A DNA stretch of 64,000 nucleotides from the IMG/VR virus record IMGVR_UViG_3300045454_000060, positions 1 to 64,000 of that record; one strand, written 5' to 3'. Positions 6,179-50,065 of this stretch are shown piece after piece; position 1 is the first letter of the stretch, and every line of letters starts with the position of its first letter. The notes under the pieces were generated by a model, which saw nothing but the letters and a program-made list of their open reading frames with translations, was not told the DNA's origin and did not search any database. The position numbers were made by a program, and so were the translations under genes. The stretch comes from a virus.

Positions 6179-7687
6179 CTAGGGGTGCTTCCATGACGTG
6201 TAGTCAAAGTCGCCTCCTTCCGGCAGGATGTTTTCGGCAAACCCAGGGGTCTGGAGCAGGATGGCGCGGCGCGTCAACGCATGCTCCTGCAGCGTGCGAT
6301 TGCCGGCATCGGCGAAATCCAGCACATGGCACAGATTGGGGCCGGTTTTCTTGGCCCTGAGGCCGCGCCCGATACGCTGGCGATGCGCCACCTCGGCCTT
6401 GCCGCCGCCAGCAAGCACGACCAGGCCGACCGCCGGCACATCCACCCCGACATCGAGAATGGTCGATCCGATCAGCGCCTGCAGCTCGCCCGAGGCAAGC
6501 GCACGCAGGGCGCGCTGACGCTCGTCGTTCTGGTGCTCGCCGAAGATGAAGGCCGTCTTGACCCCCGCATCCCTGAGCGCCCCGAGCAGGATTTCGCCGT
6601 GCTTGCGACGATTGATCAGAATGAGCGACGGCAGACCATAGGCGGCGGCGCGCCCCACCTCGAACACGATCACGCGATTGCGTTCCGGGTTCTCGACAAT
6701 GCCCAGGTCATAACAGGCGGGCCAGCGAGTTGAGCGCCGCAACCCTGGCGGGGCGGGCGCGTCGGCGATCTTGAAACGCGGCCGGGCCAGAATGCCGCGC
6801 TCGATCAGAAGCTGCTCCGAGACGTCGATGCCGATCGGCCCGAAACCCGCCATCAAACGCATATTCGCCTCGGCATCGGGGCGCATGAACGGGGTGGCGG
6901 TGAGCGCCAGACGGTAATGCGCGTTCAGGCAGTGCTGCAGGATCTCGAAATACTCGCCCCCGCCCGCCTCGTGCGCCTCCTCGCCGATCACGACCTCGAA
7001 GTAGCGCAGCAGCGCCAGCGTTCGCATGCGATCGGGGTGATTCTCCACCAGACGCGCGGCGAAGGTCTGCACCATGCCGATATTCACGCCGCGCCGCGGA
7101 TCCCACACCCCGTCGCCGATGAAGCCAGGGGTGAAGCCGGCGGCACGGAACCCCTCGGCCATCTGATGCGCAAGCACCGTGCGGGTGGTGAGGAACAGCG
7201 TCGGCCGGCGGATCGTGCCGACCGCCTGAACGGCGATGTTGGACTTGCCTCCTCCGGTCGCCACGCGCGCGATCATCCGCCCGTGCCGCAACAGCCTCCT
7301 GACCGTCTCAGACTGGTAATCATACCTGGGATCGAAGCCGAACCCCAGATAGTCCACGCTGCCGAGCACCGGGCCCAGGGGCTCAGGCGGAGGCTTCACC
7401 ACCACCCGCACGGAATGGCCGAGTCGGACCAATTCGCGCTCCACCACCGGCACAAACCCGGCCGGGAAGGTGCCGGTGCGGAAGTCGAAGAACGAGCTGC
7501 GCCCGTCCCAGCGGCGCGCCTTGAACGCCTCCGAGCGCTCATAGCCCTCGACCTGGTAGGAAAGCAGCTCGGAAACCGCGAGCTTCACCTCGCGCGAAGC
7601 GTCGAGCAGGCGCGCCGCGACCGCGTTGGCGGCCAGGCGCAGCGTCTCGCCGGTCGGCAGGGCTTGAGTGAGCGATGTCGGTTGCAC
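6179..7687 (-). CDS. SF2 (DEAH-like) helicase
   Basis: ATGGGKS Walker A, EEAH, TATP and QRIGRGLR motifs. Confidence 0.9.
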   Translation of the reverse strand: MQPTSLTQALPTGETLRLAANAVAARLLDASREVKLAVSELLSYQVEGYERSEAFKARRWDGRSSFFDFRTGTFPAGFVPVVERELVRLGHSVRVVVKPPPEPLGPVLGSVDYLGFGFDPRYDYQSETVRRLLRHGRMIARVATGGGKSNIAVQAVGTIRRPTLFLTTRTVLAHQMAEGFRAAGFTPGFIGDGVWDPRRGVNIGMVQTFAARLVENHPDRMRTLALLRYFEVVIGEEAHEAGGGEYFEILQHCLNAHYRLALTATPFMRPDAEANMRLMAGFGPIGIDVSEQLLIERGILARPRFKIADAPAPPGLRRSTRWPACYDLGIVENPERNRVIVFEVGRAAAYGLPSLILINRRKHGEILLGALRDAGVKTAFIFGEHQNDERQRALRALASGELQALIGSTILDVGVDVPAVGLVVLAGGGKAEVAHRQRIGRGLRAKKTGPNLCHVLDFADAGNRTLQEHALTRRAILLQTPGFAENILPEGGDFDYTSWKHP

Positions 7688-7737
7688 GGAATCTCCCCCG
7701 AGACTATAGTAAATCACCACTGATTGAACAACAACAG

Positions 7738-8424
7738 ATGACGATCACATCTCCGAACCCTCTCGCGGTCACGCTGCGCGACCCGCACACCCTCGTGCCG
7801 GCGCCGTGGAATCCCAATCGCGCCACCCCCGAAGACGAGCGGAAGCTGGACGAGAGCATCCGCCGCTTCGGCATGTTCAAGCCGGTGATCTGCCGCGAAC
7901 TGCCGACCGGCGCGCTGCAGATCCTGGGCGGGCACTACCGCGTGCAGGCAGCGCTGCGCCTCGGCATCAGCGAGGTGCCGGTGATCAATCTCGGCACGGT
8001 CGATGACCGTCGCGCCAAAGAGATCACCCTGATCGACAACGGCCGCTATGGCCGGGACGACACCATGGCACTGGCGGGGCTGCTGGAGGAACTCGGCAGT
8101 CCAACCGAGCTCGCCCTGTTCATGCCCTACGACCTGGTCGAGATCGACGCGATCTGCGCCGCCAGCAAGATCGACCTGGAGACGCTCGGGCTTGTCGAGG
8201 AGCCCGAGGAGAAGGCGATCGAGGACAAGCCCGCCCGGGCGCCCAAGACCCACGAAATCCTGCGTCTGAAGGTCGCGCTGGAGGATGCCGAACGGGTGCG
8301 CCGCACCCTCGAGACGATCATGCAGGCGCAGGGCTTCACCGACAGCGACGCGCTCACCAATGCCGGCGACGCGCTGGTCTGGCTGATCAATGACTGGCTC
8401 GAGCAGACAAAAGGCGAGGGGTGA
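7738..8424 (+). CDS. ParB/Srx-domain protein 1
   Basis: PWNPN...LDESIRRFGMFKPVI...ILGGHYRVQAA. Confidence 0.85.
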   Translation: MTITSPNPLAVTLRDPHTLVPAPWNPNRATPEDERKLDESIRRFGMFKPVICRELPTGALQILGGHYRVQAALRLGISEVPVINLGTVDDRRAKEITLIDNGRYGRDDTMALAGLLEELGSPTELALFMPYDLVEIDAICAASKIDLETLGLVEEPEEKAIEDKPARAPKTHEILRLKVALEDAERVRRTLETIMQAQGFTDSDALTNAGDALVWLINDWLEQTKGEG

Positions 8425-8639
8425 TGCGTCTCAAGTTCGAGGATTGCCGCGACTGCCGCCACCGCAGACGGCCAGCGATCTGCCGCGACTGCGACTATGG
8501 CGAGCTGTTCGAGGACCGCGAACGCATGACCGTGGACGAGCTGTTCAAGCAGACCACCGCGCGCTTCGGAGACTCAGTCATCCATGACGATGACACCCAG
8601 GACGACGATCTGCCGCAGGACGAGAACGACGATGAGTGA
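8421..8639 (+). CDS. Small Cys-rich (CxxC...CxxC) protein with an acidic tail
   Basis: CRDC...CRDC; overlaps both ParB-like genes. Confidence 0.7.
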   Translation: MMRLKFEDCRDCRHRRRPAICRDCDYGELFEDRERMTVDELFKQTTARFGDSVIHDDDTQDDDLPQDENDDE

Positions 8640-9303
8640 ACCCAACATCCGGCTGATGCCGCTCGAGTGGCTGCAGCCCTACGCCAAGAACGCCAAGCTG
8701 CACCCGCCGGAGGAGATCAAGCGTCTCGCCGCGACCATCAAGCGCTTCGGCTGGGATCAGCCGATCGTCGCCGAAGCCGACGGGACCATCATCAAGGGCC
8801 ACGGCCGTCGCCTGGCCGCGATCGAGCTCGGGCTCGACACGGTGCCGGTGTGGATTCGCAGCGATCTCAGCAGGGCCGAGGCCGATGCCGCGCGCATCGC
8901 CGACAACGCCGCCTTCGGCATGCGCTACGACACCGCGCTGATGCAGGAGGAGCTGCGCCGGCTGATGGCGGAGGCGCCGGAGATCTCGCTCGACGACCTG
9001 GCGCTTACCGACAAGGATCGCACCCTGCTCACCGAGCAGCTCGATCGCGCCGACGCCGACGCCATCCTCGACGAGATGGACAGCGAGATCGAGCGGCAGA
9101 AGAAGGAGGATGCCGAACGGGTCGAGAACGCGGATGCCGAGATGGTGCCGCTCGCCAAGGCGTTCGGCTTCGGCAAGATCCGCAAATCCGACGAGCGCGT
9201 GCTGATGAGCTTCATGGCCGAGGCCGAGGCGGCAACCGGCAAGGAAGGCTACGAGGCCTTCATCGGCGGGCTGAAGCTCGCCGCCGAGCGAGGGTTCGCG
9301 TGA
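8632..9303 (+). CDS. ParB/Srx-domain protein 2
   Basis: PYAKNAKLH...FGWDQPIV...IIKGHGRRLAA...RIADN. Confidence 0.88.
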   Translation: MSEPNIRLMPLEWLQPYAKNAKLHPPEEIKRLAATIKRFGWDQPIVAEADGTIIKGHGRRLAAIELGLDTVPVWIRSDLSRAEADAARIADNAAFGMRYDTALMQEELRRLMAEAPEISLDDLALTDKDRTLLTEQLDRADADAILDEMDSEIERQKKEDAERVENADAEMVPLAKAFGFGKIRKSDERVLMSFMAEAEAATGKEGYEAFIGGLKLAAERGFA

Positions 9304-9938
9304 TCTACACCATCACCAGGGGCTTCGAGACCCGCACCGAGCGCTCCGAGCGCGTGCTCGAAATCGCCGAAACCTTCGGCCTCGGGCTGAGCGACCGCCG
9401 GTTCTGGGTATTCCGCGACCTGAAGGTCGAGATCAGACAGGGCGAGGTGGTCTACATCACCGGCCAGTCCGGCAGCGGCAAGTCGCTGCTGCTGCGCGAA
9501 CTCTCGGCGCAGATGAGCGCCTCGGGGCTGCGCGTGACGAACATCGACCAGGTGGAGCTCGAGGATCGCGCCCTGATCGACCAGGTGGGCCGCTCGATGA
9601 GCGAGGCGATCGAGCTTCTGAGTCGCGCCGGCATCAACGACGCCTACCTGGCCATCCGCAAGCCGGCCGAGCTGTCCGACGGGCAGCGCTATCGACTGCG
9701 CCTGGCGAAGCTGATGCAGACCGAGGCGGATGTCTGGGTCGCCGACGAGTTCGGCGCCGTGCTCGATCGCGTCACCGCCAAGGCGGTGGCCTTCAACGCC
9801 CAGAAGCTCGCCCGCGCCCGCAAGGTGACGCTGCTGGTCGCCACCACCCACACCGATCTCGAAGAGGAGCTTGGACCCGATCTGCTGATCACCAAGCGCT
9901 TCCAGAACAGGGTTGAACTTGTCCGGAAGGATCAGTAA
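9300..9938 (+). CDS. Soluble ABC-family ATPase (no permease partner)
   Basis: GQSGSGKS, LSDGQ signature, VADE Walker B and TTH motifs. Confidence 0.88.
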   Translation: MIYTITRGFETRTERSERVLEIAETFGLGLSDRRFWVFRDLKVEIRQGEVVYITGQSGSGKSLLLRELSAQMSASGLRVTNIDQVELEDRALIDQVGRSMSEAIELLSRAGINDAYLAIRKPAELSDGQRYRLRLAKLMQTEADVWVADEFGAVLDRVTAKAVAFNAQKLARARKVTLLVATTHTDLEEELGPDLLITKRFQNRVELVRKDQ

Positions 9939-9941
9939 GCG

Positions 9942-10184
9942 ATGACGATCAAGCAGAGACTGCGCCGCTATCTCAAGGAAATCGGACGCGGCGGCTCGCG
10001 CCTGCTGAACGCGATGTTCGGCGGGCCCGGGGACGTGACCTTCTCGGCCTGGAGCTGGGAGCTGGTGCTGCGCGGCAGCGCCTGGGGACGCTGGCGCGTC
10101 CGGGTGCTGGACGCGATCAGCGGCGAGAACCACTGCTACGACGCCTGGATCTGGCACCGCACGCGGGGGCTGATCGTCCGATGA
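9942..10184 (+). CDS. Hypothetical protein
   Basis: 80-aa ORF in the operon. Confidence 0.6.
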   Translation: MTIKQRLRRYLKEIGRGGSRLLNAMFGGPGDVTFSAWSWELVLRGSAWGRWRVRVLDAISGENHCYDAWIWHRTRGLIVR

Positions 10185-10645
10185 ACCCGCAGGTCGTGAT
10201 CATGGACATCGACGGCACGCTCGCCAATGCCGATCATCGCCTGCACCACATCCGGGGCATGACCTCGGAGGAGGCGGAGCAGAAGGCGGAGGGCTGGCGC
10301 GCCTTCCTCGCCGCCGCCGAGCATGACTCGGTAAACGACGAGATCCGCTTCCTCAACAACGTGCTGCACGAGCACGCCCTGGTGTTCATCGTCACCGGGC
10401 GCAACGAGAACGATCGTGCGATGACGCTCGCCTGGCTGGCGCAGCACGGCATCCTCTACGACCGCATCTACATGCGCCGCGCCGACGATCGCCGCCCGGA
10501 CACCGAGGTGAAGCGCGAGGTGCTGGAACAGATCCGCGCCGAGGGGTTCAAGGTGCAGTTCGCGGTCGAGGACCGCGCTTCGGTGACCGCCATGTGGCGC
10601 GCCGAGGGGCTGCGCTGCCTGCAGGTCTGCGACGGCAAGTATTGA
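10181..10645 (+). CDS. HAD-family phosphatase (PNKP 3'-phosphatase-like)
   Basis: DIDGTLA, VTGR, MR..DD.RPD..VK and EDR motifs. Confidence 0.85.
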   Translation: MNPQVVIMDIDGTLANADHRLHHIRGMTSEEAEQKAEGWRAFLAAAEHDSVNDEIRFLNNVLHEHALVFIVTGRNENDRAMTLAWLAQHGILYDRIYMRRADDRRPDTEVKREVLEQIRAEGFKVQFAVEDRASVTAMWRAEGLRCLQVCDGKY

Positions 10646-10920
10646 TGAGCTGGGCCGACACCCTGCTGGTGTTCGCCAGCTCCTACGCGCTGGTGTTCCT
10701 GCTGGTGATCCAGCAGCGCACGATCCAGGCCTCGCGTTACCTGATGGCGTTCCTGTTCTCGAGCCTGATCGGCGTGGTCAACACGCTGATCGTGCGCGGC
10801 GCGGTCGGCGACGACCTGACCTGGTTCCTGATCGCGCACTGCCTGGGCGGCTCGTCCGGGGTGGTGTGCGCGATCTGGCTCTATGACACCGTGCTCGGCC
10901 ACAAGGACAAGAGCGCATGA
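10645..10920 (+). CDS. Small membrane protein
   Basis: Three hydrophobic segments; TGATG coupling with the upstream gene. Confidence 0.6.
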   Translation: MSWADTLLVFASSYALVFLLVIQQRTIQASRYLMAFLFSSLIGVVNTLIVRGAVGDDLTWFLIAHCLGGSSGVVCAIWLYDTVLGHKDKSA

Positions 10921-12062
10921 ATTGGCAATGGCCAGCACCAGTCAGTCCGGAATTGGCACAGCGTCAATTCGAGGCGCTGAAGCGATCCGATGGCACCATG
11001 GACGATGACCTGAGCGCGATCTTCAGCGGCTCAGACTGCGCCATCCGGCGTGTTCCCAAACCACGTGCGCGCTTCCCGCTGCTCGAGGAGATGTGGGTCG
11101 AGCGCGGCGATCGAGCGGATTGGGACCTGCTGCACGGGCTTCACTACAAGATGCAGTCCACGCCGGTCGGGGCGAAATACTGGCGCGTGCGCTTCCGCGG
11201 CGAGACCATCGGTGTCTGCGTGTTCGGCATGTCGCGCCCGCTCTTGAAGGAGCGCCACGCGATCTTCCCGCGCCTGACCCCGGGGCAGGACACGCAGCTC
11301 ACCAACATCCACCGCTACCGCTACATCAACGACAACTTCCGGGTGATCGGGCGGCTGGTGGTGGACACGATGTTCCGCTCCGCCGGCGTGGCCTACCGCT
11401 TCGCCAACCTGGCCTCGCGCATGACCGGCTTCACCTACATCGAGATCCAGTCCTCGATGTCGAAATACAACCTGTTTGCCCAGCGTGCCGGCTTCACCTT
11501 TGTTCGGCCGATCCGCTCGCCCAACTACGACAAGGGGCTGCGCTTCATGCGCCGCTTCTTCGCGGCGCATCCTGGCGATCAGGAAGCACTGATGGAGGAG
11601 TTCGCGCGTTTCCCGCCCGCCATGCAGAAGAAGGTCGAGCGGGAGCTGAAGGCCTTCTACTACGACCATTCGCCGCTGGAGAAGACCGGCTCGCGGCGCT
11701 TCTACAGCGATCGGGTGGTGGACAATTGGGGGGTGCGCCGCACCATCTCGAAGATCCAGGGGCTCTGCTTCGCCAGCCCGCTCTACGGGCTCTACAAGAA
11801 CCCCGACGCGGTCGGGCGCGCCGGCGCGAGCTGGGGCGGGGATCTGCCCGCTCGTCTGCCGCTGCTCGCCTTCGACCTGCAGGCGCCCGAACAGCCCCTG
11901 GCACTGGCGCGGCTCGACAAGGTTCCGGGTTGGGGCGAGCTGCAGGCGGCTCTCGCCACGCACCCTGAATGGGGTGCGCCGACGCGGCTCCCGGAAGGTT
12001 TCCTGGAGGCGGAGGACGATGGCGAGGAGCTGCAGGATCTGCAGGAGGTAAGTCATGCGTGA
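10917..12062 (+). CDS. GNAT-fold acetyltransferase-like protein (Mom-like; candidate DNA-modifying enzyme)
   Basis: N-terminal LHY motif, RLVVDTMFRSAGVA acetyl-CoA-binding loop, and ABC ATPase/ParB neighbours. Confidence 0.7.
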   Translation: MNWQWPAPVSPELAQRQFEALKRSDGTMDDDLSAIFSGSDCAIRRVPKPRARFPLLEEMWVERGDRADWDLLHGLHYKMQSTPVGAKYWRVRFRGETIGVCVFGMSRPLLKERHAIFPRLTPGQDTQLTNIHRYRYINDNFRVIGRLVVDTMFRSAGVAYRFANLASRMTGFTYIEIQSSMSKYNLFAQRAGFTFVRPIRSPNYDKGLRFMRRFFAAHPGDQEALMEEFARFPPAMQKKVERELKAFYYDHSPLEKTGSRRFYSDRVVDNWGVRRTISKIQGLCFASPLYGLYKNPDAVGRAGASWGGDLPARLPLLAFDLQAPEQPLALARLDKVPGWGELQAALATHPEWGAPTRLPEGFLEAEDDGEELQDLQEVSHA

Positions 12063-12095: not shown

Positions 12096-12344
12096 ATGAG
12101 CCCGAAAATGAAACGGGTGCTGAAGCTGGTGGCGGCGGCACCCTCTGGGAAGGAGCTGAGCCTTGATGATCTCATCAGGGTTCTGGGAGAGGGTGCCAGC
12201 AGGCAGGCGATGCAGTCCACCATCCGCTACCTGGAAGGGAAGTATCTCCTGGAGAGGGTCTATGAGACCCGTGGTGGCAAGGTTCGCATGGTGCTGAGGC
12301 CTACCCCGAGGGGAAGTGCCATGGCTGCCGCGCTGGAGAGGTAA
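12096..12344 (+). CDS. Winged-helix DNA-binding protein
   Basis: SRQAMQSTIRYLEGKYLLER...LRPTPRG wHTH pattern. Confidence 0.7.
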   Translation: MSPKMKRVLKLVAAAPSGKELSLDDLIRVLGEGASRQAMQSTIRYLEGKYLLERVYETRGGKVRMVLRPTPRGSAMAAALER

Positions 12345-12485
12345 TTCCTGGGGGAGATTCAATGAGTTAGAGAGCATGGTTTGCGATTCTTGTTGATTTT
12401 CCTGGGAGGGTGTTGAGATTCTTGAGTGTTTTCAATGGGTTGGAGAAAGATCGAAACCTTGGCTGCAACGATGTCTTCGGGCTAA

Positions 12486-12540
12486 GTTTGTAGTATTTAT
12501 GTATATATATTATATATATAATACTTATATATCTTACGTA
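12486..12540. other. Extremely AT-rich (TA)n tract upstream of the terminase genes
   Basis: GTAGTATTTATGTATATATATTATATATATAATACTTATATATC in a GC-rich genome. Confidence 0.8.
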
Positions 12541-12687
12541 GAAAGAGGGTGTTTGGCTTCAAGGGGCAGGGACGCAAAAATCTCACTTAGCGCTGAGTTA
12601 GCCCCTTGATGTGGCATTTCTGCCACAGGTATAGGTCAGTCAGCCGTGAGTGTGTTATGATGTTGCGCAGCAGCGCCAGAGAACGCA

Positions 12688-13332
12688 ATGAGTGACGCGA
12701 ACCAGGACAAGACCGAACTTGACGCGGGAGAGGGCAGGCCTGCCCGGCCCATGCGCAAGCTGTTCCCGAAGGAATGGCTCGAGATCGTCGGCATGGCCAA
12801 GTCCGGCGTGCCGGTCGAGAAGATCGCCAAGAGCTTCGGCGTCCAGCCTTCCACGATCTACAAGGGCCTGAAGCGGCGCAACATCACGATCGGCGCCTAC
12901 ACGCCCTCGGCCGCCGAGGTGCATGAGAGCGCCGAGCGGCGCGAACTGATCGCCAGGATCAAGGAGACCAAGGACAAGGACTACCGCTTCACCGAGTTCC
13001 TGCAGCGCCAGGTGGTCACTCTGATCGCCGAGCAGCAGAAGGAGAAGCGCCCCTTCGCCGCCGTGATCGACGACGTCAAGGCGCTCAAACTGGCGCTCGA
13101 CGCGGTGCGCTCCGGCACCGACAACAAGTGGAAGATCCTCGGGCTCGACAAGGAGAACGACGACGCCGACAAGGAGCTGCCGGAGCTGCCGCTGCGCGAG
13201 CTCACCGAGGACGAGATCGCCGCGATTCGCGACCGCCAGATCATGGAGGATGGCGGCGAGGCGCTCGAGGCGCTCGATGGCGAGGACGAGGGCGAGATCG
13301 TCGAGGAGTCCGGCGAGCCGGACGAGGACTGA
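12688..13332 (+). CDS. Terminase small subunit (putative)
   Basis: N-terminal HTH (VEKIAKSFGVQPSTIY); directly upstream of the large terminase. Confidence 0.7.
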   Translation: MSDANQDKTELDAGEGRPARPMRKLFPKEWLEIVGMAKSGVPVEKIAKSFGVQPSTIYKGLKRRNITIGAYTPSAAEVHESAERRELIARIKETKDKDYRFTEFLQRQVVTLIAEQQKEKRPFAAVIDDVKALKLALDAVRSGTDNKWKILGLDKENDDADKELPELPLRELTEDEIAAIRDRQIMEDGGEALEALDGEDEGEIVEESGEPDED

Positions 13333-14598
13333 ATGCCCGCGCTCGCCGCGCGTCCGGCCGTCGTCGGCCTGGCGCTCCATCCGCGTCAGAATCAGGTCTT
13401 CCAGGCGCCGCATCGCTTCAAGGTGGTGGTTGCCGGGCGGCGCTGGGGCAAGTCCAAACTCGCCCTTGCCGAGCTGCTGCGCGCCGCCAAGAAGCCGCGC
13501 CAGCTCGTCTGGTATGTCTGCCCGACCTACCGCATGGCGAAGCAGATCATGTGGGTGGATCTCATGGACACGATCCCCCGCGCCTGGATTCGCAAGTCCA
13601 ACGAGACCGCGCTCGAGGTGCTGCTGGTCAACGGCTCCAGGATCTGCCTGAAAGGTGCGGACAAGGCCGATACTCTCCGCGGCGTCGGCATTCACTACCT
13701 GGTCATGGACGAGATGCAGGACATCCGCCCCGAGGTGTGGGACGTGGTGCTGCGTCCTACGCTCGCCTCGACGCGCGGGCGTGCTCTGTTCGTCGGCACG
13801 CCGAAATCCTACAACCACTTCTACGAGCTCTATCAGCGCGGCCAGAAGGAGATCAACCAGAAGACCGGCCAGTGGAGGAGCTGGCAGTTCCCGACCATCA
13901 CCAGCCCCTTCATCCCGCTCTCCGAGATCGAGGCGGCGCGTGCCGACATGGACGAGCGCTCCTTCCGCCAGGAGTTCGAGGCGACCTTCGAGTCGATGTC
14001 CGGGCGGGTCTACTACAACTTCTCGCGCACGATGCATGTCGGGGATTACCCGTTCAACCCCAAGCTGCCGATCTGGATCGGTCAGGACTTCAACGTCGAT
14101 CCGATGTGCTCGGTCATTCTGCAGCAGCAGGTGAACGGAGAGATCTGGGCGGTGGATGAGATCTACCAGCCCAACTCCAATACCGACGAGGTGATCGACG
14201 AGATCGAGCGTCGCTACTGGCGCCACATGAAGCAGATCACGGTGTTTCCTGACCCTGCCGGCGCCAATCGCTCGACGCGCGGGCGAGGGGAGAGCGACAT
14301 GGACATCTTCCGCGAGCGCGGCATCCTGCGCCTGCGCTACCGCCGCAAGCACCCCTCGGTGACCGATCGCGTCAACGCGGTCAACCGCATGCTGCGCACC
14401 GCCGACGGCACGATCCGCCTGCGCGTGAACGGCGCCTGCCGGCATCTGATCGAGAGCCTGGAACAGACCCTCTACAAGAAGGGCTCGCCCGAGATCGACA
14501 AAAGCCAGGGGCTCGAGCACATGACCGATGCGCTCGGCTACCCGATCGAGCTGCTGTTCCCGCGCCGGCGCATCGAGCCTGTGGGCGTTTCGATCTGA
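13333..14598 (+). CDS. terL: Terminase large subunit
   Basis: AGRRWGKS, LVMDE, GTP, GQDFN and H..DALGY motifs. Confidence 0.95.
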   Translation: MPALAARPAVVGLALHPRQNQVFQAPHRFKVVVAGRRWGKSKLALAELLRAAKKPRQLVWYVCPTYRMAKQIMWVDLMDTIPRAWIRKSNETALEVLLVNGSRICLKGADKADTLRGVGIHYLVMDEMQDIRPEVWDVVLRPTLASTRGRALFVGTPKSYNHFYELYQRGQKEINQKTGQWRSWQFPTITSPFIPLSEIEAARADMDERSFRQEFEATFESMSGRVYYNFSRTMHVGDYPFNPKLPIWIGQDFNVDPMCSVILQQQVNGEIWAVDEIYQPNSNTDEVIDEIERRYWRHMKQITVFPDPAGANRSTRGRGESDMDIFRERGILRLRYRRKHPSVTDRVNAVNRMLRTADGTIRLRVNGACRHLIESLEQTLYKKGSPEIDKSQGLEHMTDALGYPIELLFPRRRIEPVGVSI

Positions 14599-14648: not shown

Positions 14649-16223
14649 GTGCCCTTTACCCTCCCAACCGAGCAGAAGGAGCTGCTGGCCCTCGTGGACC
14701 GGCGGCACCCGCGCTATGCCGAGCGTCTGGCGCACTGGCTGTTCTGCCGGGCGACGCATGACGGCGGGCGCGACTGGTTCCTGACCAACATCTTCCGCTA
14801 CCTGAAGGAAGGGAACCGGGAGTTCAGGGATCGTCTGAGGCGCGCCTATCGCTTCAATCACACGCGCGAAGTCGTGCGCCTGGTGACCAAATACATCTTC
14901 AAGTCGGGTGTCATCCGCAATCTGGAGGAGACGCCGAAAGAGCTTCGGCGCTTCTGGAAGCACACCACCGTGAAGGGCGCGGGGATCGACGAGTTCATGC
15001 GGCGCGCCTCGGATCTGGCGTCGATCTACGGTCGGGTCTGGCTGGTGGTGGACAGCGACGTGCCGGCGGATGTGCTCACCCGTGCCGATGAGCAGAGCGG
15101 GCGGTCGCGTCTGTTCGCCTACACGGTCACGCCCGAGGACATGCTGGACTATGCCTGGGACGATCATGGCGAGCTGCTCTGGGCGCTCTGGCGCGTGACG
15201 TATCGCGATGACGCCGATCCCGTGCTGTCCTCCGGCGCGGTGCTGCCGCGCTACATGCTCTGGACGCGCGAGGGTTTCGCCGTGCTGCAGGAGCATGCCG
15301 GGCGCCGGCGCGAGGAGCGCCAGATCGAGGTCATCCGCGTCGGCGACAACCCGATCGGCCAGGTGCCGCTGGTGCCGCTCGACGAGCAGGAATCGGACGA
15401 TCCCTACGATGTGCCGGGGCTGATCGCCGACATCGCCTATCTCGACCGCGCGGTCGCCAACTACGTTTCGAATCTCGACGCGATCATCCAGGATCAGACC
15501 TTCTCGCAGCTCGCCATGCCTGGCCAGGGGCTGCTGCCGGGCGAGGATGCCTACAACAAGGTGCTCGAAATGGGCACCAAGCGCGTGTTCATCTACGACG
15601 GCGAGGCCTCCTCCGGGCCCGAATACATCTCCCCCGACGCCTCGCAGGCGCAGGTCATTCTCGGCACGATCAACAAGATTATCGCCGAGATCTACCACTC
15701 GGTCGGGCTCGCCGGCGAGCGCACCAAGCAGGACAACGCGGTCGGCATCGACAATTCCTCCGGCGTGGCCAAGGCCTACGACTTCGAGCGGGTGAACAGC
15801 CTGCTCGCCGGCAAGGCGGATGTGCTGGAGCGCGCCGAGGATCGCCTGCTCGCTCTGGCCGCGCTCTGGATCGGCGTCAAGCTTCCCAGGGGCGAGGACG
15901 ACGAGGTCAAGGATCTGGTCAAGTATCCCGACAGCTTTGACGTGCGCTCGCTCTACGACGAGTTCGAGATCGCCGAGAATCTGGCTCTGCTCGAGGCCCC
16001 CGACGAGGTGCGGCGCGAGCAGATGCGCACCCTGGTCGCCAAGATGTTCCCGCGCCATCCGCGCGCGAAGCTCGAGGCGATGGAGAAGGACGTGGCGGCC
16101 TGGCCGCCACGGGCGGAGATCGCCCCCGCGGGATCGCCGTTCGATCAGCCGACGCCTGGGCGCCGTCCCGTCGGGTCCCAGCCCCGCCAGGGCCAGGTCA
16201 CGGCCGACACCGACACCGAGTAA
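14649..16223 (+). CDS. Portal protein
   Basis: 524 aa directly after TerL; SGVAKAYDF motif. Confidence 0.85.
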   Translation: MPFTLPTEQKELLALVDRRHPRYAERLAHWLFCRATHDGGRDWFLTNIFRYLKEGNREFRDRLRRAYRFNHTREVVRLVTKYIFKSGVIRNLEETPKELRRFWKHTTVKGAGIDEFMRRASDLASIYGRVWLVVDSDVPADVLTRADEQSGRSRLFAYTVTPEDMLDYAWDDHGELLWALWRVTYRDDADPVLSSGAVLPRYMLWTREGFAVLQEHAGRRREERQIEVIRVGDNPIGQVPLVPLDEQESDDPYDVPGLIADIAYLDRAVANYVSNLDAIIQDQTFSQLAMPGQGLLPGEDAYNKVLEMGTKRVFIYDGEASSGPEYISPDASQAQVILGTINKIIAEIYHSVGLAGERTKQDNAVGIDNSSGVAKAYDFERVNSLLAGKADVLERAEDRLLALAALWIGVKLPRGEDDEVKDLVKYPDSFDVRSLYDEFEIAENLALLEAPDEVRREQMRTLVAKMFPRHPRAKLEAMEKDVAAWPPRAEIAPAGSPFDQPTPGRRPVGSQPRQGQVTADTDTE

Positions 16224-47211: not shown

Positions 47212-48210
47212 TTATGACAAATCTTGGGCCTGGGTGATCAGCCGGAAGCCCTGCATCTGGGTGCGCGGCACCGCCGCTGGCGACGGCTTCAGCGTCAGCC
47301 CGTATGAGCCGCACTCGATCTGCGCGTCGGGATAGACCGCCAGCACGTCCGGCAGCACCTGACGGATGCGCTGCGCCAGGGACGAGACACGCGCATCGCC
47401 GGCGCCGAGCTGGGCGCGCAGCGTGCCCCAGCGGAGATGCAGCGGCGTGGTGAGGCGTGGCAGCCGGTAGGCGAACAGGGCGTAGAGATCGAGCCCCAGC
47501 GAGTTGTCGGCCAGGTAGGCGATTGCACGTCGATCCAGCGGCACGGCGTGCTCGCGCAGATGCGCGTGGAATCGATCGGAGAGCTCCACCGTCTGTGCCC
47601 AACGCCCCTCGCCGCGTTCGGTCCAGAGCTCGAGCCCCTCGACAATGCGGCTCTCCTGGACGAGCGTTCGCGTCTCTCCGTTCGCACCTGCAGCATCCCA
47701 TTGCAGCGTGAACGAGCACCGCGCGATTCGCAGCGCCTGCTGCCGCACGGCCTGGATCGAGCCTCGCGCCCCGCCGGTGACCGGCAGTCCGAGCGAGCGA
47801 ATCCAGGCGCTCATGGAGGGTCCGAGCTGGACGATCTTGTCCTTCAGGCCCTCGGTCTGGAGATAGATCAGGATCAGGCGTGCCTTGGGGCCGTAGGGCA
47901 CGCCGACGCGCACCGCCTTCCCCTCCTCCACGATCGCCCCGGGGCTGACCAGCAGATGGAACCGTCCCGCACTGCGCTGCCAGATGGCGTTGTCGTTCGG
48001 CGGGCGGCTGTGCGGCAGGAAGGTCTGGCAGAGCCCGGAATGCAGAAAGGCGAGCTCCTCGGCATTCGGCAGATCGGACAGGATCTCGTGCGCGACCTCG
48101 ATTCGCTGGCGAAGTTGACGCTGCTTCGTCGGGCTCGGTTCGGCCGCGACGGCGTTCAGGCTCGCTTCGAGACCAATCAGCTCGAGCTGGCTTCGCTGTG
48201 TGCGACTCAT
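47212..48210 (-). CDS. repA: Plasmid replication initiator RepA (RepA_C family)
   Basis: FLHSGLCQTFLPH and GVPYGPKARLILIYL motifs; adjacent iteron array. Confidence 0.88.
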   Translation of the reverse strand: MSRTQRSQLELIGLEASLNAVAAEPSPTKQRQLRQRIEVAHEILSDLPNAEELAFLHSGLCQTFLPHSRPPNDNAIWQRSAGRFHLLVSPGAIVEEGKAVRVGVPYGPKARLILIYLQTEGLKDKIVQLGPSMSAWIRSLGLPVTGGARGSIQAVRQQALRIARCSFTLQWDAAGANGETRTLVQESRIVEGLELWTERGEGRWAQTVELSDRFHAHLREHAVPLDRRAIAYLADNSLGLDLYALFAYRLPRLTTPLHLRWGTLRAQLGAGDARVSSLAQRIRQVLPDVLAVYPDAQIECGSYGLTLKPSPAAVPRTQMQGFRLITQAQDLS

Positions 48211-48254
48211 GGGCACCTCCGCCGACGCTGATACAGGATTCGGCGACGGGGGCT

Positions 48255-48551: not shown

Positions 48552-48935
48552 TCAGAACCCCAGATGGCGCAGATATCGGTCAAGCGCCTCCTCGACGATG
48601 GCCTGCTTTTCGCGCCGCGCGTGGAACGCGGCCTGGCGCAGACGCTCCTGCAGGCTCGCGGGCAGACGCACCGAGACGGTGATGCGGGGTTCGATCGGTG
48701 CCGGGTCGGGCGCTGCCGCGCGTGCCCCCTCCCCCCCGCGCGCCCTGGATGTGGGGTTGTGGGGCTCGTAGAGTGCCTCTGGTGCGTCCGCGCGGGTTGT
48801 CCCCTCCCCTCCCCCATCGTGTTCCAGCAGCACTCTGGGCGCTTCCTGGGGCAGTGCTGGCACGGGAACCGCAGCGCCCTTGGTGGCGCGCGGGATGGCG
48901 AGATCCTCGAGGGTCGGTCGCTTGCTGGCGCTCAT
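48552..48935 (-). CDS. RHH partition adaptor (ParG/CopG-like)
   Basis: ITVSVRLPASLQERLRQAAFHARREKQAIVEEAL; coupled to parA. Confidence 0.8.
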   Translation of the reverse strand: MSASKRPTLEDLAIPRATKGAAVPVPALPQEAPRVLLEHDGGGEGTTRADAPEALYEPHNPTSRARGGEGARAAAPDPAPIEPRITVSVRLPASLQERLRQAAFHARREKQAIVEEALDRYLRHLGF

Positions 48936-49603
48936 GCCGGCACCTTCCTGTTGACGAGCTGGCTGGCTGGCAAGCTGGCGGGCTTGCCGTTCAGACGGTT
49001 GCTCAGATAGCGCCACAGCTCGGCGAACTCCCGTGCCGGCGTGCCCTTCGGGTCGATTTCGACCGCGGTGCGACCGTCGATCCCGCTCTCGCGGATCTTC
49101 GTGCTGAGCGAGATGATCGCTGGGGCGACCGTGCCGTGCTGGCTGAGCTTGATCGCGGTCTGTGCGGTCAGCCTGGCGCGCCGATTGGCGCCGTTGATGA
49201 TGAACACCACGGGTTTGCCTTCGCTCTCCACCAGGTCGATCGTGCCGCCGACCGCCCGCAGGTCGTCCGGTGAGGGCAGTGTTGGCACCAGCACCAGGTC
49301 GGCCAGGTGGATCATCGCGCGCACCAGCTCCGAGGCTTGCGGCGGCGTGTCGATCATGGCGTAGCGGTAGCCGCTCTGGCGCAGGCGGGCCAGGATCGCG
49401 GGCATCTCGGCGAGGCTGGACTGCACGAAATCCGGCCGCTCCTCCGCCCTGGCGTTCCACCACTGCGACAGCCCGCCCATCTCGTCGGCGTCGATCAGGG
49501 CGACCGGCCCCTCCCCTGCCCTCTCCGCCTCGACCGCCAGATGGCGCACCACGGTCGTCTTGCCCGCGCCACCCTTGCGGCAGGCCACCACGATGGTCTT
49601 CAT
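48932..49603 (-). CDS. parA: ParA partition ATPase (type Ib)
   Basis: KGGAGKTT deviant Walker A and IDTPP; no N-terminal HTH. Confidence 0.92.
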   Translation of the reverse strand: MKTIVVACRKGGAGKTTVVRHLAVEAERAGEGPVALIDADEMGGLSQWWNARAEERPDFVQSSLAEMPAILARLRQSGYRYAMIDTPPQASELVRAMIHLADLVLVPTLPSPDDLRAVGGTIDLVESEGKPVVFIINGANRRARLTAQTAIKLSQHGTVAPAIISLSTKIRESGIDGRTAVEIDPKGTPAREFAELWRYLSNRLNGKPASLPASQLVNRKVPA

Positions 49604-49629
49604 CTGCGACTCCGTGTGCGACTCCGTGC

Positions 49630-50065
49630 CAACCGGCAGGCAACCTGGCATGCCGCGCGGCTGGCAGGCAAGTCGAGTGCGCGGCTGGCAGGCTGGTCAG
49701 CGGGACGGATGGGCGAGGGGGCAGCTTGCGGGCCGTTCGGCTTGGCGCGTGGCTGGCTGGCGGGAAAGCGGACTGCGCGGCGAGAGGGCCAGCAGGCGGG
49801 CTTAAAGGCGGACGGGCTGACGGACAAGCTGGAAGGCGGGCAGGCCGGCTGACGGGTGGGGTGACCAGTCAGCGGGCGGGCGGGCTGTTTGGCAGGCAGG
49901 TGGCACGGCCTGCTGTCAAGTCTGCCGTCAAGCCGGGCGTCAAGCCGGACGGCAAGCAGAGCAGTGGTGTGGCTGGCGGGCTGCGCGCCTGGGCAGCGGC
50001 GTTGCTGTCTGAGCGGTCATGTTGGAAGCTTGCTAGTCAGCATGCTTGCTGGCAGAGCAGCAAAC
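49630..50065. repeat. Degenerate GGCTGGC/GGCAGGC/GGCAAG repeat field; candidate centromere
   Basis: Dense short repeats upstream of parA and again at ~48957-48990. Confidence 0.55.

Follow-up and report, generated by a model that had tools for sequence, protein, structure and literature searches.

The window analysed here is a stretch of 64,000 nucleotides of viral DNA (positions 1 to 64,000 of the IMG/VR virus record IMGVR_UViG_3300045454_000060), and the contig containing it measures 102 kb. The source of this DNA is a groundwater metagenome. The locus in question lies at 7738-12062 on the + strand, where eight translationally coupled open reading frames (ORFs) stand just 5' of the terminase genes terS and terL. 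They include genes for two ParB-like proteins (ParB1 and ParB2), a soluble ATP-binding cassette (ABC) ATPase and a GNAT-fold protein, which form the main subject of this study. The element itself is an SSU5-type phage-plasmid. It is recognised as a phage-plasmid because it carries genes for a RepA_C replication protein (47212-48216, - strand) and a ParA-like ATPase (48932-49651, - strand), and its gene order agrees with that of Salmonella phage SSU5, Pseudomonas phage nickie and the Rhizobium RHEph10 group.

Organisation of the locus

Domains and families were assigned by Pfam, PHROG, NCBIfam and PADLOC profile searches of the ORFs of the window. The genes in and around the operon are listed below, with E-values after the family names.

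6179-7720, - strand: superfamily 2 helicase of UvsW/ResIII type (ResIII 2.6e-12, Helicase_C 1.7e-10, UvsW_N 4e-4; phrog_16 7e-86)
7738-8424, + strand: ParB1 (Pfam ParB_N 5.9e-10; phrog_723 3e-57)
8421-8639, + strand: CxxC...CxxC zinc-ribbon-like protein of 72 aa with an acidic tail (two CxxC pairs in the translation)
8632-9303, + strand: ParB2 (ParB_N 6e-5, under the Pfam cut-off; phrog_930 5e-61)
9300-9938, + strand: soluble ABC ATPase of 212 aa (ABC_tran 6e-15)
9942-10184, + strand: basic protein of 80 aa, isoelectric point (pI) 11.3 (phrog_3342 2e-10)
10181-10645, + strand: stand-alone PNKP-type HAD phosphatase (PF25109 HAD_PNKP 1e-26; phrog_415 3e-42)
10645-10920, + strand: holin-like membrane protein of 91 aa (three hydrophobic segments by hydropathy; phrog_7045 'holin' 4e-13)
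10917-12062, + strand: GNAT-fold protein of 381 aa (phrog_886 1e-104; no Pfam match)
12096-12344, + strand: basic protein of 82 aa, pI 10.5, between the GNAT gene and terS (phrog_900 6.5e-7)
12688-13332, + strand: TerS-like DNA-binding protein, immediately 5' of TerL (phrog_867 1e-24; Pfam HTH_7 8e-6)
13333-14598, + strand: terminase large subunit, TerL (phrog_2 1e-51; Terminase_6N 1.4e-7; Terminase_6C 9.5e-9)
14649-16223, + strand: portal gene, downstream of TerL

The junctions within the operon consist of overlaps of 1-8 bases or a spacing of 3 bases. For example, direct reading of the sequence places the GTG start of the ABC gene across the stop of ParB2 (GTGA at 9300-9303). No terminator-like site was found on the + strand between 7300 and 13400, and a promoter/terminator consensus scan of the locus yielded nothing exceeding shuffled controls. 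At the 5' end, the alignment of homologues favours 7738 as the start of ParB1, which leaves an intergenic distance of 17 bases to the divergent helicase; the longest ParB1 ORF (start 7675) would overlap the helicase start (7720, GTG). With a spacing of only 17 bases, both promoters must therefore lie within coding sequence. The sole sizeable gap of the operon is a non-coding interval of 344 bp (12344-12688) between the 82-aa ORF and the TerS-like gene. It could be the site of a late promoter or a packaging site, and a consensus scan of this gap gave no signal.

This layout agrees largely with an earlier note on the same DNA. The seven genes named there were all found on the + strand where it had placed them, including the CxxC mini-protein, the PNKP-type phosphatase and the small membrane protein. 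Its two ParB/Srx proteins and its soluble ABC ATPase were likewise recovered by the profile matches given above, as was the tight operon just 5' of the terminase genes, with coupled junctions and with TerS-like, TerL and portal genes downstream. The gene list was incomplete in one respect, as the 80-aa basic ORF at 9942-10184 had been overlooked.

The ABC ATPase and the GNAT-fold protein

The ABC ATPase has a Walker A motif (GQSGSGKS), an LSDGQ signature, a DEF Walker B motif and the H-loop histidine H184, all of them invariant in 29 homologues. The 381-aa protein, for which a GNAT fold had been proposed earlier from its LHY and FRSAGVA motifs, was modelled with AlphaFold2 from 37 homologues at a predicted local distance difference test score (pLDDT) of 86. 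According to this model, the GNAT fold is solid: the core comprises approximately residues 52-200 plus a strand at 289-294, and a helical insert of about 85 aa (204-285) is placed between the last two strands. Conservation is lacking in the first 39 and the last 45 residues. Each match listed by Foldseek and VIA is a GNAT or a protein with a GNAT-type domain, the best at Z 10.4-10.5. Moreover, GNAT motif A (R154-x-x-G157-x-A) and motif B (N185, F187, A191-G192-F193) are invariant or nearly so, and H76, Y77, K78 and several arginines are also invariant. The core is strongly basic, with a pI of 10.7. A search of PDB sequences with the GNAT profile returned only insignificant GNAT matches (E 1.4).

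In the window the ABC (9300-9938) and GNAT (10917-12062) genes are separate, with three ORFs intervening, and represent a split variant; in archaeal proviruses, Gordonia phages and others, ABC and GNAT form a single protein. A profile search of 1.8 billion representatives yielded numerous relatives, 440-560 residues long, whose GNAT-like part begins at about residue 200. ABC_tran lies directly N-terminal to the GNAT-like region in all ten of the distant relatives examined, several fused relatives match Pfam GNAT models directly, and the counterparts of the motif A/B residues do not vary in the fused family either. Both halves could be aligned by hhalign. The split ABC family matches the N-terminal half of the fused archaeal proteins with contiguous coverage (E 5e-84, probability 100), and the split GNAT family matches their C-terminal half over columns 218-474 of the fused profile (E 1e-38, probability 99.95). 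Judging from these alignments, the two genes of the window are the halves of a single ABC-GNAT enzyme, and the GNAT protein is expected to work with the ABC ATPase because both form one polypeptide in many other viruses. Records of related SSU5-like phages bear the label 'MK0520, ABC-type ATPase fused to a predicted acyltransferase domain'.

A transporter function was considered for the ABC ATPase and rejected, since no permease or other transporter membrane domain was found in the operon or in any relative, and the 91-aa membrane protein is far too small for such a role. Database labels of the type 'ABC transporter' for these genes are thus misnomers.

The ParB-like proteins

ParB1 and ParB2 are paralogues, with 33% identity across 92 residues. 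ParB1 is composed of an N-terminal ParB/Srx domain, an acidic linker and a C-terminal helical domain, and its GG(E)HR box II motif (GGHYR) is conserved in 29 homologues. ParB2 has a ParB/Srx nucleotide-binding domain with a GHGRR box II, an acidic linker and a conserved C-terminal domain; its invariant residues are N20, K22, H24, G56, H57 and R59. The GxxR of box II is kept in both. Family profile searches detected no helix-turn-helix (HTH) family in either protein. The AlphaFold2 model of ParB2 (pLDDT 90) has as its top Foldseek matches Noc, PadC and the ParB proteins of M. xanthus and C. crescentus bound to CTP/CDP (E 1e-6). Furthermore, ParB2 matches phrog_498 'DNA methyltransferase' at 2e-29, and its positions 13-160 match PADLOC MTase_II (PDLC03229) at 8.5e-18. 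By these matches, ParB2 is a ParB module of the type seen N-terminally in ParB-DNA methyltransferase fusions.

A role in plasmid partition was also considered. The sole ParA-like gene of the window stands next to RepA at about 37 kb from the ParB1/ParB2 genes, parS not having been searched for. As the plasmid's ParA and RepA are this distant, ParB1 and ParB2 are unlikely to be its partition proteins, and the partition reading was rejected. The partition locus of the phage-plasmid is separate from the ParB-like gene pair near the terminase. No plasmid replication or partition genes were seen in the fetched parts of the nickie and BiggityBass records.

Occurrence in related and unrelated viruses

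Relatives of the GNAT protein occur in at least 260 stretches in IMG/VR, and relatives of the fused protein in at least 570 places in prokaryote genomes. Eighty viral contigs, all of one phage lineage, and the best 80 of the genome loci of the fused family were compared. Among the closest relatives is a contig of 89 kb whose GNAT is 81% identical. In every sufficiently long contig of the former set, the order helicase (- strand), ParB1, ParB2, ABC, GNAT, (TerS), TerL and portal is kept, and the order ParB1, ParB2, ABC, GNAT, TerL is also found in SSU5 and nickie. ParB1 was detected by phmmer in 69 of the 80 loci. The helicase is upstream in all related viral loci of sufficient length; it is absent beside the archaeal fused genes, where only two weak matches were obtained. 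It is a syntenic neighbour within the phage lineage, outside the conserved unit. By these comparisons, the unit itself comprises only ParB1, ParB2, the ABC ATPase and the GNAT-fold protein.

Nearly all of the best 80 loci of the fused family come from archaea (Bathyarchaeia and Nitrososphaeria), and most of them from proviruses, as indicated by the adjoining terminase, tail-tube and HK97-gp10-like genes. The commonest neighbour of the archaeal fused gene is the large terminase, which lies at most one gene away in 37 of the 80 loci and at most three genes away in 45. In three Bathyarchaeia loci (L110:5611-7527, L142:2663-4576 and L145:1448-3391) one polypeptide of about 640 aa unites ParB_N, ABC and GNAT, and three Nitrososphaeria loci have ABC-GNAT followed by ParB, one further gene and TerL. 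The left end of Gordonia phage BiggityBass (L173:1-4196) carries genes for ParB (gp1), ABC-GNAT (gp2), a methyltransferase (gp3) and the terminase (gp4). Here gp2 is annotated as 'ATP binding cassette-like protein' and gp3 as 'tRNA-methyltransferase', a second nucleic-acid-modifying enzyme in the operon. Additionally, in a virus of 34% GC represented by 12 contigs, a fusion protein of 1260 aa combines a family B DNA polymerase (PolB), which has exonuclease and polymerase domains, with ABC-GNAT (for instance, L164:8001-11783 and L165:8001-11783). In viruses related to this carrier, the polymerases measure 790-1160 aa and bear different additions at the C-terminus.

ParB, ABC and GNAT thus travel together, by gene and domain order, beside DNA-handling enzymes in at least five arrangements. 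The ParB domains are counted as part of the unit because they are fused or adjacent to it in unrelated viruses, and the unit is tied to DNA transactions by the terminase gene close by and by the DNA polymerase fusion.

Genes of the variable slot

The other genes of the operon are far less regular. By phmmer, the zinc-ribbon protein was found in 12 of the 80 related loci, the 80-aa basic ORF in two, the HAD phosphatase in four, in the same slot, and the holin-like membrane protein in six. By their distribution, these four are lineage-specific cargo and not parts of a machine. The gap between the ABC and GNAT genes (9938-10917 in the window; the same gap in loci L004-L083) holds zero to five small ORFs in the relatives, and in about 20 of them the two genes abut with nothing in between. 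It is a hot spot for small inserts, in which the PNKP-type HAD phosphatase recurs in four lineages and the holin-like protein in six. The phosphatase match covers positions 1-143 of the 143 profile positions of PF25109, with DIDGT at residues 9-13; a kinase domain is absent, and the protein is hence not a full PNKP. The 72-aa CxxC protein has no Pfam, PHROG or NCBIfam match. At its position SSU5 has no gene and nickie has an ORF of 53 aa. Outside the slot, the 82-aa basic protein (12096-12344) was found in 11 of the 80 relatives by phmmer, and SSU5 and nickie have a small ORF at its place.

The GGNA-biased island

At 1012-2564 the window contains an island of 1.55 kb in which nearly each GG is followed by A two bases on. 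Counted on both strands, there are 19 HGGNB sites, compared with a median of 167 in windows of equal size, and 85 HGGNA sites, compared with 37. The island includes ORFs at approximately 1590-2198 and 2274-2483. The depletion noticed in the earlier note is therefore real. Its proposed link to the module found no support in the relatives: a co-occurrence test in the 80 related viruses, covering GGNA-biased islands up to 10 kb from the module (farther islands or islands of another motif would escape it), found no comparable island in any of them, the lowest fraction being 0.46 against 0.15 here.

Proposed function and alternatives

The original prediction of an ABC-ATPase-coupled GNAT was reportedly made by Iyer, Zhang, Burroughs and Aravind (NAR 2013). 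The fused family described above matches phage pT24 at the gene pair named by Iyer et al. For this ABC ATPase-coupled GNAT, with phage pT24 as the example, the prediction is acylation of a DNA base, a modification that is still uncharacterised (PMC7824862, Viruses 2021). Two further systems provide models. Mom is a GNAT that aminoacylates double-stranded DNA (dsDNA) with Gly-tRNA as donor (PMC13219725), and a phage thymine dioxygenase is activated, specifically on dsDNA, by a ParB-like phage protein that has no DNA-binding domain (PMC13229309). The searchable literature yielded no experiments with the ABC-GNAT module.

The chances seem to us evenly balanced that the module acylates DNA around the time of packaging, driven by ATP and assisted by ParB. 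The ABC domains would dimerise upon ATP and hold the enzyme on dsDNA, by analogy with other DNA-handling ABC ATPases. The highly basic GNAT domain with its helical insert would then pass an acyl group to a DNA base, for which acyl-CoA would be the simplest donor because the CoA-binding motifs are intact. The ParB-like proteins, which keep the nucleotide-binding box and have no recognisable HTH, may load the enzyme on dsDNA or activate it there, in line with the role of ParB for the phage thymine dioxygenases and of the ParB module in ParB-methyltransferase fusions. Finally, as these genes are read together with terS/terL as a unit, the mark would be added late, to DNA awaiting packaging, and it would protect this DNA in the next host. 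The sequence comparisons show the identities of the domains, the relation of split to fused forms, the fusions with ParB and polymerase and the repeated closeness to the terminase; we infer DNA as the acceptor, the acyl transfer, the acyl-CoA donor, the timing and the protection. Somewhat more tentative, at a little under even chances, is the sharper proposal that a ParB-loaded, ATP-driven ABC-GNAT writes a hitherto unknown acyl-type mark on dsDNA bases just before packaging and thereby constitutes a new class of post-replicative hypermodification. From the packaging-coupled base-modification machine of the earlier note, DNA modification is retained as the best reading, with ABC, GNAT and ParB linked; the participation of the whole operon, the kinship with Mom and the island as target are not.

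Several points weigh against DNA acylation. The earlier note had called the GNAT-fold protein Mom-like and suggested its comparison with Mu Mom. In this comparison, run by AlphaFold2 model, structure search and hhalign, Mom reached Z 9.8-10.0 and was tied with ordinary GNATs (10.4-10.5). Its structural alignment is the longest among the matches (150-166 residues; 166 at Z 10.0 with a root-mean-square deviation (rmsd) of 3.9), but the Z scores do not set it apart from ordinary GNATs. No sequence relation was found by hhalign (probability 0.15%, 10 columns), a weak test with a single Mom sequence. The resemblance shown is that of a common fold and an insert at the corresponding place, and a GNAT fold alone cannot separate DNA from protein, RNA or small-molecule acceptors. 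The synteny of the 80 viral loci is not independent evidence, as they represent one lineage; independent support comes from the archaeal loci, the Gordonia phage and the polymerase fusion. Because simple N-acyl groups at adenine N6 lack chemical stability (PMC13219725), a mark made of acetyl alone might be short-lived. In addition, the searchable literature contained no report of a modified base in SSU5-like, nickie-like or RHEph10-like phages, and a literature search for restriction-resistant SSU5 DNA gave nothing relevant.

The acceptor could also be a protein. It is rather unlikely that ABC-GNAT acetylates TerS, TerL, the portal or a host protein, with ParB merely bringing the enzyme to a DNA-bound target. 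Most structural neighbours are indeed protein or small-molecule N-acetyltransferases (NatA/Naa, RimI, Gcn5, HP0935), phage GNATs acetylating host proteins exist (e.g., Rac, cited in PMC7824862), and terminase proximity in many arrangements would suit a packaging-protein substrate equally. However, DNA is indicated by the PolB fusion and by the kinship of ParB2 to the ParB module of DNA methyltransferases, the unit is accompanied by no conserved candidate protein across its bacterial, actinobacterial and archaeal arrangements, and a protein acetyltransferase has no evident need of an ABC ATPase. An RNA acceptor is considered improbable. The enzyme would then be an ATPase-coupled RNA acetyltransferase like TmcA/NAT10, shielding, for example, tRNA from host anticodon nucleases, with the PNKP-type phosphatase as an RNA-repair companion. 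TmcA and NAT10, cytidine acetyltransferases that combine an ATPase with a GNAT, stand at Foldseek ranks 3 and 6, yet they fall outside the best 50 by Z, their Foldseek alignments have an rmsd of 15-27 A, and their ATPase is of helicase type, not ABC. The phosphatase lies within the operon here and in four relatives but is missing in about 95% of them. Nickie has tRNA genes a few kb upstream, and the Gordonia phage has its 'tRNA-methyltransferase' gene downstream of the fused gene; the links to ParB, polymerase and terminase are nevertheless DNA links.

We see equally little chance that the unit has no modifying activity and serves to organise DNA, to initiate packaging or to provide a second partition system, in which a ParB clamp would cooperate with the ABC ATPase (cf. 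ParB-SMC) and the GNAT would be structural or regulatory. The recruitment of an ABC ATPase (SMC) to DNA by ParB is an established theme, the unit is always beside the terminase, and RepA and ParA are encoded on the element, a phage-plasmid. On the other hand, catalysis is favoured by the invariance of GNAT motifs A/B and of the Arg, His and Tyr set in split and fused families, a coiled coil is absent from the ABC protein, ParA and RepA are about 37 kb distant, and the fetched parts of nickie and BiggityBass gave no plasmid replication or partition gene. Very improbable is the version of the earlier note, in which all eight genes make up a single modification machine directed at the motif that is avoided at 1012-2564. 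In its favour are the translational coupling of all the genes and the reality of the island, but the added genes, found in only 12, 2, 4 and 6 of the 80 relatives, are missing in most of them, in about 20 relatives the GNAT gene comes straight after the ABC gene, and no comparable GGNA-biased island accompanies the module within 10 kb in the relatives.

If DNA acylation is the true function, the module would represent a new and very widespread DNA-modification chemistry, a mark shared by tailed viruses of Proteobacteria, Actinobacteria and Archaea. It would be the second GNAT-based DNA marking besides Mom and the second enzyme class dependent on a ParB-like helper, and it would account for genes labelled 'ABC transporter' or 'partition protein' in databases. 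SSU5-type phage-plasmids of enterobacteria (Salmonella, Klebsiella and E. coli) carry the module, and a new DNA-acylating enzyme might find use as a tool.

Comparison with known systems

TmcA/NAT10 follows the same logic as proposed here, namely an NTPase-coupled GNAT that acylates a nucleobase of a polynucleotide. However, it employs a helicase-like ATPase and an RNA substrate, compared with the ABC ATPase here, and the alignments have very high rmsd. Mu Mom (PDB 8bv8) has the GNAT fold in common with the protein of the window, and its action on dsDNA is proven. Both have an insert between the last two strands, which in Mom (between strands 6 and 7) is essential and about 35 aa long, against about 85 aa here. 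The catalytic residues of Mom are R111, S124 and R151. In contrast to the present module, Mom works alone, without ATPase or ParB, and its donor is Gly-tRNA, not acyl-CoA; its com/mom translational control is absent here.

The ParB-like proteins have two counterparts. ParB-domain DNA methyltransferases (phrog_498; MTase_II PDLC03229) contain the N-terminal ParB module that ParB2 matches, and both adjoin packaging genes; the methyltransferase domain is not present here, and the enzyme served would be ABC-GNAT. The systems of the 5mYOX thymine dioxygenases (PNAS 2026, PMC13229309) include a small ParB-like protein of the phage, in which an N-domain that binds nucleotide is combined with a C-terminal domain and no DNA-binding domain is evident. 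Its gene is located beside that of a DNA-acting enzyme, often near terminases, as here. The partner there is a Fe/2-oxoglutarate dioxygenase, whereas here it is ABC-GNAT with two ParB paralogues, and ParB is proven to be necessary there for activity on dsDNA, whereas activation would be its presumed role here.

The closest comparison is with the Iyer-Aravind ABC-coupled GNAT (COG2401 / MK0520-type), described as 'ABC-type ATPase fused to a predicted acetyltransferase domain'. It has the same two domains in the same order, both halves are homologous by profile, and the same role in acylating a DNA base has been predicted. The arrangement in the window differs in being split into two genes with three unrelated ORFs between them and two ParB paralogues ahead. 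The locus is thus a split and decorated member of an ABC-GNAT kind already predicted computationally, and what it adds is the decorated ABC-GNAT slot with its HAD phosphatase, holin-like protein and 80-aa ORF.

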